Below are positions 11,645 to 54,897 of a stretch of DNA of 64,000 bases, piece after piece. The first letter of the stretch is position 1; each line of letters begins with the position of its first letter. Location of the stretch: positions 1-64,000 of the forward strand of contig CAXHJY010001446.1 in the NCBI GenBank assembly GCA_964016885.1. Direction: 5' to 3'. Both the position numbers and the translations under genes were made by a program. The notes below the pieces were generated by a model, which saw only the letters and a list, made by a program, of their open reading frames with translations, did no database searches and was not told the DNA's origin. The stretch is from Eledone cirrhosa. Its lineage: Eukaryota.

Positions 11645-11801
11645 TCTTTGAAAGAAATCATCAGGCTTTCCTGATCATTTCTTTCGAATGAAACAGTTCT
11701 AGTCCTGTAGAAGCCATTTCTCTATTAAACTTGATGTTTGCACTCTTCTAATATATTGAGTACCTTACTTACTGTGGTTATCGCCGATTGAATCCGGGAC
11801 A
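11645..11801 (+). mobile_element. PLE-type 3' end fragment (family E)
   Basis: Homologous to 54734-54897; HHR-like CTGATCA...TGAAAC; ACTC-N10-TTGAGTAC tail motif. Confidence 0.55.
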
Positions 11802-11810
11802 CATATATAT

Positions 11811-11955
11811 ATAACGAAGGAAATGTGGTAAGGAACCAGATGGACCATAACGCACCAAAGTACTCAATACTTAAGATAGTAGAGTGGGTAATAGGAACAA
11901 GTATGATCCCGTCGAAACGGCTTGAGCTCTGCCGTCGGGGTCATACTTGTTCCTA
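11811..11955 (-). mobile_element. Fold-back element family D with a shortened left arm
   Basis: Homologous to 28660, 38520 and 51608; partial inverted repeat ATAGGAACAAGTATGA / TCATACTTGTTCCTAT. Confidence 0.8.
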
Positions 11956-14900
11956 TATATATATATATATGTGTGTGAATGAAGTAATTCCGTCGGAATC
12001 CTGGATTTTTTCATTCTGAGGATTGAAAGCAAAATTTTTTGCTTTTAAGAAACCACTGGTAAATGGAATAATTGCCTTATGTTGTTTATTACATAACTAT
12101 ATATATATATATATATATATATATATATATATATATATATATATATATAAGTTTCTCAAACGAAAATTAATATTTTTTAAACATTGAATGAAATGTCCAC
12201 CATAAATCATATATTATAAGATGGTATTATTTTACTTTCGATTTAATTCATATATTTAGTGTTAAGACACATATGAATACTATGTGACATTTGTGATTTA
12301 TAGCTAACCACATAGGGGAGAAAGGTTAATCAATTGTTTGTAAAAAAAATAGTTTAAATATTTTTTACGTCTATTTCGTGTGAAGTGAAATGAAATTTTG
12401 AACGATTCCTCATATACACATGTATTTGCATGCATATATGTATATGCATGTACTTATGTATGTATGAATAAATGAATCTCTCTCTCTCTCTCTCTCTCTC
12501 TCTCTCTCTCTCTCTCTCTATATATATATATATATATATATATATATATATATATATATATATATATATATATATATAGGTGGTATTAAAAAAAAAGACT
12601 TGCTGTCTTCATGGAAACACCAACCCCAAGCATACAAAACCTACTTTAAACAATACCTACATGCTAACAGTCACTCACCAACTATTACAATATTATGGTC
12701 TATCAATCTCTGAACCTAGCAAGCCTTATAACTATCTCTTCATAGTCAAGAACTGTGTGAAGTACACCTTCTTTTTCCCTGGACACATCCTATATACACA
12801 CCTTTCACCTCCATATTATCTCATTTTCCTATTCTACACACAATGTAATTCTATTATCTAAATATTTACACATTTTCTCAGTTATATGCAATGAGTAAAT
12901 CATTTTAATCCTGGAGTCAGCCTCCTGAATCAATTATATATTTTCTGTTCCCAAATCTCGTTCAGCCATATTTATACAGTTCTCTTGACAATATCGCTGA
13001 CAAACATTGTTTGCATTTATGCAATATTTCCACACCATGAAATCATTGAGTTCCAAGATGAGTGAGACTAGTAAGACTTTGTGTGACTATATATATATAT
13101 ATATATATACATATACTTCATACAAAACGAAAACTAACGTTGTTATCCAACAATTGTTTCTATAGAGATAACTGCAGTGCCAGTACATAGAATGAACTAA
13201 TCACTCCAACAATTAATAAATTGTTTAAATGAAGTTCTGACACAACTACCCAGTTGATTTTCTTTATATATATATATATATATATATATATATATATATA
13301 TATATATATATATATGTGTGTGTGTGTGTGTGTTTGTGTGTGTGTGTGTGTGTGTGTGTGTGTGTGTAGCATAATTAAAATTCCATACACTTAAACATAC
13401 TAAATAAGCTCTTTAGGAATAGATTGAGCATTGATTTCCTTGGCTTTCTATCTCCGGATATCCTGCACACACTCACACACTCACACTCACACACACTCAC
13501 ACACACACACTCACACACACACATGAAAGTGTTATCTATACCATCATTTCTACAGTTTTGTTTCATATTTTGTGTTATATCTTCTAATCCAATCTAGTTG
13601 TAAATACATTATTACCCGACATAAAATGTTATACTTGTGTGTCAGATGTAAGAATCTAAGTCATAATATTTATAATGGGATTGTTATGTTTCATTGATTG
13701 TCTTATATCCGTTGTGTAACTTGTAAAGTTGCGGGTCTATACTAGTATTTCAATTCTCGTATTTACATAACGTAATATAGTTGTTATTCATAGTTTCATG
13801 TGTAACATGTTCTGTTTGTGTTGTTCTGTTTCATGAGTTTTTAATGATGAATTCATCCATTTCGTGGAATGGTTTTATTGGTTTTATAATGTATATAGAT
13901 ATATGTTTGCGAATATGGATGTGTTGTGGTTTGAGATGTGTTGTGGTTTGAGATGTGATTGGATGTGTTTATTGTGATAACACAGAACACACATATATGG
14001 TTGAGTATATTTGTGTTGTCGTTTGACGCACTCTATGGAATTGTTCGATAAATAATCACGGTGAAGTACATAAAATCCAACATATAAGTGTGGCATATAT
14101 GGAGAAAACTAAACAATTAAATAGTGGAAACCATGGTACAAATATAATTATATTATTACTTACATGTACATGACAAATAAATATGTATATATATATATAT
14201 ACACACAGACACACACACACACACACACACACACATATATATATATATATATATATGTACAAGCACATACAGACACACACACACACACACACACACATAT
14301 ATATATATATATATAGTCAGGCATCAATATATTATATAATTTGGTATTCTCTTCTTGCAGACTTCACCAGTTAAGATTATGCCAATCTATAAATACTTCC
14401 TAGCTTATTACTAAAGGAAATATTGATGACGATGATGATTATATAATAATAATAATAATAATAGTAATAATAGTAATTATAATCAAATACGTTCTTTTGT
14501 GTCTTTACAATTGATTTTATCATTGGATAATATATTATTGTTTGTTGTTGTTGCTGTTGTTGTTGTTGTTGTTGGCGCTGTTGTTGTTGTTGCTGCTATT
14601 GTTGGCGCTGTTGTTGTTGTTGTTGCTGTTGATGATGTTGCTATTGTTGTTGTGGTTCTAGTCAATGTGTAAATATGATTTATTTCCCACCCCACACTCT
14701 CTCTCTCACTCTCTCTCTCTCTCTCTCACTCTCACTCTCTCTCACTCTCTCTCTATATATTCTTTGTTACTTCATTATCTATTTATTTACTTTTTCATTT
14801 GTTCCATAAAACAAATAAAAACAAAATTCCAGAAAAGAATCGAAACAGGTTTATAATTGCCTATTTATTCATTGTAATATTATTAAGTGTAACACTGGCA

Positions 14901-15542
14901 ACAACAACAACTGTAGCAGCAACAATAACAACAACACCACCAACAACAACAATATATGTGTAGAAATATACAAAATAAATAAAATGACTATATTGTAAGT
15001 GTGTGTGTGTGTGTGTGTGGCTTACCGTATTATATGAAAGAATTCAATAAACATTTGATGTTGAATACACACACACACACACATATATATATATGTACAC
15101 ATACTTACACACACACACACATATATATATATATACGTATGTATAAGGAGAGTTATACCAACCTACCTGCCTATATACATACAGTCATCCACACTTACAC
15201 ATACACGTATATACATGTTTGTGTATTTGTGAATGTGTGCATGTAGATATGTATATATTCGTGTATGTATATTACAACAAAAGTAATTAAACAAGAATTA
15301 GCTATATTCGTCCGTAAATGGAATATATAACATATTGCAGAATTCTGTAGAAATATATGAGTAAAATTTACTTTGAAATCTAATGAAATACAATACGGTA
15401 GCAATGGCGACGTTTAGAAGCCGGGGACGTGAACATTAATGGAGAAAAGAAAAGAAAAAAACTTTCATAGAAAAATAAGAACAAAACAGATAATTCCAAA
15501 TTGCAGTCTTCATAAAAAAAACATCATTATTATCATCATGAC

Positions 15543-15817
15543 GTTGGTCGTCGTCGTAGTTGTTGTTGTTCGTCGTCCGTCGTTGTTGTTCGTTGTCCGT
15601 CGTTGTTGTTCGTTGTCCGTCGTTGTTGTTCGTTGTCCGTCGTTGTTCGTCGTCCGTCGTTGTTCGTTGTTCGTCGTTCGTCGTTGTTCGTCGTTGTTCG
15701 TTGTTCGTTGTTCGTCGTTGTTCGTTGTTCGTCCGTCCGTCGTTGTTCGTCCGTTCGTCGTTGCTCGTCGTTGGTCGTTGTTGTTCGTCGTTGTCGTTGT
15801 CGTCGTTGTAGTTCGTC
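15543..15817. repeat. Degenerate (GTT/GTC)n low-complexity repeat
   Basis: Read directly; open in several frames. Confidence 0.9.
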
Positions 15818-53900: not shown

Positions 53901-54073
53901 ACATGATTGTGATATATTTCCATATATATACCTTCTCTTTATCTACTTATTTGATGAACTCAGATTTATAGTAAATGACAAAGAAGAAGAATATTTATGC
54001 ATTTAATTAAATATCTTTCGCTGTTTGCCCATAATTTTACTAGCATAAAAAATGTATTGCCCCCCCCCCCCCC

Positions 54074-54183
54074 ATATATATAAATGACTTCTACAGGATT
54101 AGAACTGTTACATTCATATGAAATCACTTCGATTGTTCATACGACTGAAACAGTTCTAGTCATGTAAAAGTCATTTATATATC
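54074..54183. mobile_element. Fold-back family E, diverged
   Basis: AAATGACTTCTACAGGATTAGAACTGTT / AACAGTTCTAGTCATGTAAAAGTCATTT. Confidence 0.7.
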
Positions 54184-54524
54184 TACAAAGATGCACACAG
54201 ATATATATGATTTATTTAGAATAATGGTTCCTATATAATAAACACGACCTATTAAGACAGCAATTGTGGTTGTAAAGAACCGAAGTAGGTCACCAAGTAT
54301 AATTAATGGCCATATTGAATGCTACTTCGATCTGAGGTTTTTCTTTTTTCAAGAAATATTAAGCGATGGTAGTACCACAAACAACAACAACAAATACAAC
54401 TGCAACAACAACAATACGACGATCATATCGACAACGTTTAACATTTCCTGTATATCAACCAACACAAAACAAACTACACGTGCAAAACAAAGAAGTAAGC
54501 GTTGTTATCTTATTTCATTATATG

Positions 54525-54708
54525 GATTGGCAGTATGGGTAGAGGGTCAGACACCATGCTTTGACGCATAGAGTTACGGCCCTTTCCATTCTGAGTTCAA
54601 ATCCCGCCGAGGTCAACTTTGCCTTTCATCCTTACGGGGTCGATAAAATAAAGTACCAGTAATGTACTGGGTGATTGCTGGCCTTGTGCCAAAAGTAGAA
54701 GCAATTAT
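54525..54708 (+). mobile_element. SINE family C
   Basis: Matches the family consensus. Confidence 0.85.
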
Positions 54709-54733
54709 ATATATATATATATATATCATAAAT

Positions 54734-54897
54734 GTTTAATATAGAAATGGCTTCTACAGGACTAGAACTGTTTCATTCATTTCTTTTGAATGAAACAGTT
54801 CTAATCCTGTAGAAGCCATTTCTATATTAAACTTGTTTACACTCCACTAATGCATTGAGTAGCTAACTGTGGTTACCTCCGATTGAACCCCGGACTC
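54734..54897 (+). mobile_element. Fold-back family E with tail
   Basis: Arms 54734-54779 / 54787-54832, then ACTC-N10-TTGAGTAG. Confidence 0.8.

Follow-up and report, generated by a model that had tools for sequence, protein, structure and literature searches.

Why do short inverted repeats of different families, scattered over one stretch of the Eledone cirrhosa genome, end one of their arms a few nucleotides before the same motif? The stretch (GenBank assembly GCA_964016885.1, contig CAXHJY010001446.1, positions 1 to 64,000, forward strand; all 64,000 nt are referred to as the window) contains fold-back repeats sharing ACTC-N10-16-TTGAGTRC. The original prediction took this motif for a conserved cis-signal of Penelope-like elements (PLEs), either a binding or nicking site of their GIY-YIG endonuclease or an ACTC/GAGT stem-loop, which would fix where a second round of reverse transcription starts. 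Our analysis indicates that the repeats likely derive from Hydra-clade Penelope-like retrotransposons as 5'-truncated insertions, that the motif is a predicted bulged hairpin, and that copying would likely start 0-8 nt 5' of either of two such hairpins. The assignment of the window copies to the Hydra clade is based on sequence features: they have the hairpin in common with that clade, their hammerhead is of the same type and their target is (TA)n.

Both strands of the window were scanned with the pattern ACTC-N10-16-TTGAGTRS. The scan recovered all 10 motif copies exactly where they had been placed originally, on the same strands, whereas 100 dinucleotide shuffles of the window gave a mean of 0.15 copies and a maximum of 2, and none of the 100 reached 10. 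The 10 copies group into about six sequence families, and hence do not represent 10 independent events. An eleventh copy with the variant ATTC was found on the minus strand at 38568-38593 and is an addition to the earlier list. The DNA of the window is animal-like and rich in (TA)n and in fragments of long interspersed nuclear elements (LINEs). Alignment revealed no outer arm for the copies at 11742, 37819 and 41364. At 11675-11970, two different motif-bearing families stand tail to tail within one short (TA)n tract.

Eight fold-backs were observed in the window by self-alignment, some of the arms being delimited by eye (Table 1). Each consists of an inverted, 5'-truncated copy beside a direct copy, with a tail on one side only. 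In all eight, the short arm stops 5-8 nt before ACTC, and the fixed register proposed for the arm end is therefore confirmed. By alignment, the distance is 5 nt in each of the four family D copies (the last being the ATTC copy), 7 nt at 44.8 kb and 8 nt at 54.8 kb, with the proviso that each junction shares 1-5 nt with the (TA)n flank and the true ends could lie a few nucleotides further 5'. At 34.9 kb, where the script ran on through a TA match, the distance is 6 nt by eye. The copy at 36025 had not been listed as palindromic, and by eye its arm stops 5 nt before ACTC. The length from ACTC to the microsatellite is 61-89 nt in the window tails, and eight of the nine measured tails end in (TA)n and one in (TC)n. 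The two arms of each family D copy share copy-specific variants, and the lengths of the two arms differ at the palindrome centres.

The repeats had also been described as ribozyme-bearing palindromes, which as a general claim is too broad, since it holds for two of the eight. The palindromes at 34.9 and 44.8 kb are the only ones with the full CTGANGA..GAAA hammerhead core; GAAA plus stem III is all that family D and the 54.8 kb family have retained of it. The minimum-free-energy fold of the 44.8 kb copy does not yield the hammerhead, and Rfam gave no match for the window hammerhead at the gathering score. The family D arms at 28739-28853, 38599-38716 and 51687-51817 start at the palindrome centre, all of them at or near the heptamer AGTCCAG, which looks as though the RNA had a fixed 5' end from which copying ran off. 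This apparent 5' end lies inside the hammerhead, 3' of the expected position of the CUGAUGA core.

Table 1. Motif copies, fold-back repeats and related features of the window.
Feature	Position	Strand	Remarks
Bulged stem 1	11742..11763	+	Copy of the 54.8 kb family (11675-11813); outer arm not found
Fold-back, family D	11814..11956	-	Very short tail-side arm; stem 1 at 11860-11885
Fold-back, family D	28662..28853	-	Stem 1 at 28708-28733
GIY-YIG endonuclease fragment, Hydra type (CxCx5C linker, CxxC, CxH)	30593..31075	+	Not joined to any motif copy
Fold-back with tail	34540..35031	+	Hammerhead core 34836-34878, mirror 34605-34647
Bulged stem 1, upper stem CA/TG	34943..34964	+	About 6 nt after arm end
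Tiny fold-back, D-related tail	35981..36086	+	Stem 1 at 36025-36050; arm by eye
Bulged stem, 5-bp upper stem TAAGG/CCTTA	37819..37846	+	No arm found
Fold-back, family D	38522..38716	-	Stem 1 variant ATTC (U-G wobble) at 38568-38593
Bulged stem, 5-bp upper stem TGCAT/ATGTA with one G-U pair	41364..41391	+	No arm found
Fold-back	44467..44892	+	Inverted arm 44467-44632, sense arm to 44797, tail to 44892, then (TA)n; high-copy family
Minimal type I hammerhead motif	44694..44752	+	Mirror copy on minus strand 44527-44570; stems I and III by eye
Bulged stem 1, upper stem CGG/CTG	44805..44832	+	7 nt after arm end
Fold-back, family D	51610..51817	-	Tail 51610-51686, palindrome 51687-51817; stem 1 at 51656-51681
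Fold-back	54734..54903	+	Family common to 11675-11813; only 3' half of hammerhead retained
Degenerate bulged stem 1	54841..54862	+	Upper stem broken, last base G; 8 nt after arm end

In place of a genome-wide survey of inverted repeats, public reads and contigs were aligned to two of the families, D and the one at 44.8 kb. Family D has a breakpoint at 51687, where the sequence passes into (TA)n exactly 5 nt short of ACTC, in 1632 of 17,285 and 1641 of 21,184 reads and in 224 of 12,030 and 12 of 317 contigs, although counts from restriction-site-associated DNA (RAD) reads may derive from few loci. This position was the largest cluster of loose ends in three runs and the second largest in the fourth, among the 24 of 444 entries listed. 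Variants of at least 5% within the family D motif were confined to the loop, the second bulge base and one C-to-T change that preserves a wobble pair. In one run, 15 contigs of the 44.8 kb family likewise pass into (TA)n, at 44799, also 5 nt before ACTC. Since other copies of this family reach further 5' than the palindrome centre (loose end at 44630), the 44.8 kb copy is truncated. About 500 RAD molecules per run ending at 44794 and 200-290 ending at 44791 were set aside together with a drop in depth and the loose ends at 44794, because they coincide with an AATT site; these ends are probably the restriction cut of the library.

The motif is predicted to fold into a bulged hairpin, in which ACUC/GAGU is interrupted by a UH bulge on the 3' side, continued by a covarying upper stem and followed by RCU. 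The ends of the spacer pair directly inside ACUC/GAGU, opposite a 2-nt bulge. Hence the stem-loop suggested originally stands, refined to a bulged hairpin whose upper stem covaries. The upper stems in the window are TAC/GTA, TAAGG/CCTTA, TGCAT/ATGTA, CGG/CTG and CA/TG. Over the six families the upper-stem pairing amounts to 20 bp, a value reached in none of 200,000 shuffles, and the upper stem is broken in two copies (11742 and 54841). Rfam covariance models gave no match at the gathering score in the window, and none at E values up to 1 in five loci. In most window copies, the 8-mer after the bulge (GAGURCUY) is self-complementary when wobble pairs are allowed. A role of this 8-mer in dimer formation is unlikely to be general, because the corresponding 8-mer of the GCUC/GAGC form described below is not self-complementary.

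The endonuclease fragment of the window has 4424 relatives. An alignment of 15 longer relatives led to 78 metagenome loci (from the best 80 of 402 stretches) and 11 genome-bin loci, which together represent 75 families at 80% identity. The Hydra-type linker to the C-terminal endonuclease (CxCx5C-type) was found in 87 of these 89 loci, DK[TS] in 64 and RW[KR] in 42; many of the loci are 5'-partial, and their assignment to the Hydra clade is by these protein marks rather than by a tree. Pfam returned nothing for the window fragment itself and, for nine endonuclease homologues, a sub-threshold GIY-YIG match in one. A search for longer homologues found none, and searches of viral contigs gave one weak locus and then none. 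The eleven genome-bin loci (L080-L090) are prokaryotic bin contigs with animal-type Penelope elements, which probably represent contamination of the bins by host DNA.

The hairpin recurs in these loci, mostly as GCTC-stem-loop-TH-GAGC-AC-T and rarely with UCUC/GAGA, and at least one stem was found in 65 of the 89. The core motif occurs 6.0 times per kb in leaders, 0.85 in 3' flanks, 0.07 in the spans of the open reading frames (ORFs) and 0.08 in antisense, making leaders about 80-fold denser in the hairpin than ORFs. The same motif marks the ends of ORF-bearing Hydra-clade elements, in agreement with the conserved cis-signal and the Penelope-like origin that had been predicted. Eighty-five unique spacers were gathered without requiring an upper stem, and the first upper pair forms in 79 of them (C-G in 52, U-A in 26 and G-C in 1). 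Upper-stem cells pair in 129 of 159 cases, compared with 78 ± 5 in permutations, a test that related sequences can inflate. The outer pair of the lower stem is G-C in most loci, U-A in four stems of two loci and A-U in the window.

Published Hydra consensi in the available part of File S7 of the PMC8557442 supplement were inspected by eye. Three of the six contain the full motif (Hydra-2_Amil, Hydra-2_Ajap and, twice, Hydra-1_Ajap) and two contain a degenerate one. An origin from Naiad elements was discarded, as three cephalopod Naiads show no motif by eye. Among 21 matches in the supplement, the non-Hydra ones show no stem by eye, although line breaks can hide matches. In the same material, the consensus of the clam element Naiad_Mmer contains a motif-like hairpin whose outer pair is G-U; it lies in the 3' untranslated region, about 170 nt downstream of the stop codon of the reverse transcriptase.

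In the Hydra-clade leaders the hairpin is commonly present twice. Of 33 loci with an ATG start and a leader of at least 150 nt, 18 have two stems by the strict pattern, 8 have one and 7 have none. The spacing from stem 1 to stem 2 is 55-83 nt in 29 pairs and matches the 61-89 nt of the window tails. We compared these stems with the ends of each locus's own pseudo-long terminal repeats (pLTRs). From 32 repeats, 10 at contig ends and one tandem repeat were dropped, which left 21 internal junctions. Fourteen of these end 0-6 nt before a stem, 5 at stem 1 and 9 at stem 2; they come from 14 families (P ~6e-10 at a chance rate of 0.1). The ORF-bearing locus L071 has the layout of the window copies: its inverted arm stops 3 nt short of stem 1, and the tail is on the sense end. 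A cross-locus mapping of ends, in which 10 of 23 were at stems, was set aside because it includes breakpoints between subfamilies. In two twin leaders (L010:385-510 and L002:275-365), the predicted minimum-energy fold swaps the partners of stem 1 and stem 2, a possible conformational switch.

The 10 nt before a stem contain TAT or ATA in 76 of 93 cases, compared with about 30% of control leader windows, and TA peaks at position -6. The ends could therefore be determined solely by where the (TA)n target anneals to TA-rich patches, while the hairpins do another job in transcription, translation or ribozyme folding and follow such patches by chance; indeed, the stems are located 3' of the hammerhead and 5' of the start codon, a region in which regulatory elements are to be expected. 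However, TA-rich patches are also available elsewhere in the leaders, at the control frequency given above, and yet two thirds of the junctions (14 of 21) are at stems. The main (TA)n breakpoint of family D is at a stem as well. We consider this explanation highly improbable.

The reading that we favour, and hold to be probably correct, is that either RNA stem can serve as a docking site for the reverse transcriptase, which primes on the AU-rich segment next to it, the tail being the interval from stem 1 to stem 2. We infer that the hairpin is the signal that fixes the starts of reverse transcription. In this scheme, the endonuclease would nick both strands of the (TA)n target, and each nicked 3' end would anneal to the 3-5 AU-rich nucleotides immediately 5' of a stem that the protein is holding. 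Priming at stem 2 would give a strand that copies tail and arm, and priming at stem 1 a strand that copies the arm alone. Both strands would stop early or run off the 5' end of the RNA and then be joined head to head. The product would be a one-tailed palindrome that has stem 1 immediately within its tail and lacks stem 2, which would never be inserted. Because stem 2 stays outside the insertion, a signal in the RNA is favoured over one in the inserted DNA.

The copy-specific variants common to both arms of family D are also predicted if the tail end is the sole start and the short arm arises by fold-back of the complementary DNA (cDNA), with an antisense hairpin that halts synthesis some 5 nt short of stem 1; such a stem can form on the antisense strand. 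However, in five ORF-bearing loci the sense 3' end lies 0-6 nt short of stem 1, a position that follows directly from a start site, and the same register is found at stem 2, where the cDNA has no hairpin. The arm lengths at the family D centres are also unequal, and a cDNA fold-back appears improbable.

The covariation bears on the other half of the original prediction, a binding or nicking site in DNA. Compensatory changes occur in both the upper and the lower stem, unlike in a fixed-sequence site recognized by a GIY-YIG endonuclease in double-stranded DNA. A DNA site is therefore less supported than the stem-loop, since the sequence covaries as a structure and ends precede a stem 2 that is absent from the inserted DNA. 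The hairpin could still act in DNA if the GIY-YIG domain recognized a single-stranded or extruded intermediate and nicked it a few nucleotides 5' of the stem, trimming a longer copy to both ends. In the available text of PMC8557442, Craig et al. attribute the tail to resolution of an intermediate by the endonuclease, and the Penelope endonuclease of Drosophila virilis needed the tail for recognition and cleavage, as cited in the part of PMC11167929 at hand. The stem folds on both strands, and the cut would land in TA-rich sequence. On the other hand, covariation excludes a plain double-stranded sequence site, and within the helices G-U outnumbers A-C by 9 to 2, a small count that would favour the sense strand. 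A longer DNA intermediate is required and none was seen, whereas the two RNA starts of a relative were measured in vitro, according to the same part of PMC11167929. Action of the hairpin in DNA is thus unlikely.

Several observations weigh against RNA stems as start signals, besides the small G-U count and the possibly few loci behind the RAD reads. Single hairpins are only weakly stable (z -0.7 to -1.8), the copies at 44.8 and 54.8 kb do not adopt the hairpin in the minimum-free-energy fold, and sense and antisense strands fold about equally (0.86 versus 0.81). Seven of the 21 junctions are off the pattern; the one in L054 fits a variant stem by eye and six do not. For the families of the window, stem 2 was not seen, as repeats at the tail end were skipped for family D and the listing for the 44.8 kb family contained no loose end of this kind. 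No window family could be linked directly to an ORF, the alignments having given no long contig pieces. The ACTC/GAGT form of the window is absent from the confirmed stems of the 89 loci. By eye, the Hydra-1_Obim consensus in the supplement portion described above shows no motif, nor does the Poseidon RNA tested in vitro, in the available part of PMC11167929.

Endonuclease-positive PLEs are described in the accessible text of PMC3846280 and PMC8557442 as inserting with an inverted, 5'-truncated pLTR and a one-sided tail of 30-40 bp, and the palindrome-plus-tail layout is to that extent already published. The window copies resemble these elements in the inverted arm, the direct arm, the one-sided tail, the pLTR hammerhead and the microsatellite target, and differ in their longer tails (about 65-95 nt). 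The same portions of both papers name no conserved structured signal at either end. For the Hydra clade, the available text of PMC8557442 gives a (TA)n target, a type I hammerhead and protein marks (CxCx5C linker, CxxC, CxH, DKT, RWK, no CCHH), and that account does not mention the hairpin. The window copies share the (TA)n target and the type I hammerhead, with the full core in two families and the 3' half in two. The published Hydra elements seen there have a G-C outer pair, whereas the window copies have A-U and no ORF accompanies the motif.

The closest biochemical parallel is the Poseidon protein PAc of Anolis. As reported in the part of PMC11167929 at hand, it cuts and extends both strands of AT-rich DNA in vitro, initiates at two internal RNA sites that bound the tail, in an AC-rich stem-loop, needs RNA 3' of the start sites and is a predicted dimer. 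The likeness lies in the two starts that bound the tail, the AT-rich target and a signal 3' of the hammerhead. In PAc, by contrast, one stem-loop lies inside the ORF, the starts are not homologous to the target, and the RNA of Fig. S1 shows no motif, again in the accessible part of that paper. In the Hydra elements, the leader that carries the two separate stems is non-coding, and copying would start 5' of each stem with TA microhomology.

The core of the hairpin, a bulged U followed by G-C and A-U pairs, is similar to the arginine sandwich motif of the human immunodeficiency virus trans-activation response (TAR) element and 7SK, as set out in the available text of PMC6189040. The first bulge base is U in 80 of 85 spacers, the second varies, and the G-C and A-U pairs form a fixed core, part of which was built into the search pattern. 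The likeness is one of secondary structure and implies no common ancestry; a U-A-U triple and arginine binding are predicted. More tentatively, and on balance doubtfully, a dimeric telomerase-related reverse transcriptase might bind both copies of the motif in Hydra elements simultaneously, possibly via TAR-like arginine pockets, and align each AU segment with one nicked (TA)n strand, similar to the template alignment of telomerase, giving two programmed starts on one RNA. If so, a portable element of some 30 nt would determine how long the tail is and which target is chosen. In hepatitis B virus, the bulged hairpin epsilon is bound by the reverse transcriptase and sets the start of synthesis, which is protein-primed from the bulge. 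Hydra elements would differ from this in that the target DNA acts as the primer, at a site 5' of the stem.

No description of the motif was found in the literature or in Rfam, although Repbase entries and paper supplements could hold one, and the available portions of PMC4209133, PMC7229834 and bioRxiv 10.64898/2026.07.22.740005 do not describe it. How PLEs choose a start site and form a one-sided tail has been an open question since the tail was described, and the sole in vitro study found two starts and no conserved determinant. A motif of 25-30 nt that covaries in dozens of families, is present twice per element and is in register with both ends can be tested with exact mutants. It also serves as a marker to annotate the ends and non-autonomous copies of the Hydra clade and offers a point of comparison with the RNA of telomerase, the sister lineage. 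If portable, the motif could direct which RNA such an enzyme writes into (TA)n sites.

Other repeats of the window were also noted. The endonuclease fragment is flanked by an inverted repeat (30514-30648 and 31226-31360). The layout of this unit (30514-31360) is opposite to that of the fold-backs, in that the inverted copy is one of the 5' part and is placed downstream, and neither a hammerhead nor a stem was found in it. Other palindromes flanked by (TA)n, in which no stem was called nearby, lie at 28515-28636, 54076-54182 and 6780-7016; the one at 54076-54182 is related to the 54.8 kb family, its tail being decayed or absent. Two LINE 3' fragments, at 29491-30320 and 42788-44152, are related to each other and contain a PHD-like finger. 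Another repeat, associated with these LINE fragments, has a (GAT)n end, and the fold-back at 44.8 kb is located there, at the 3' end of that repeat.

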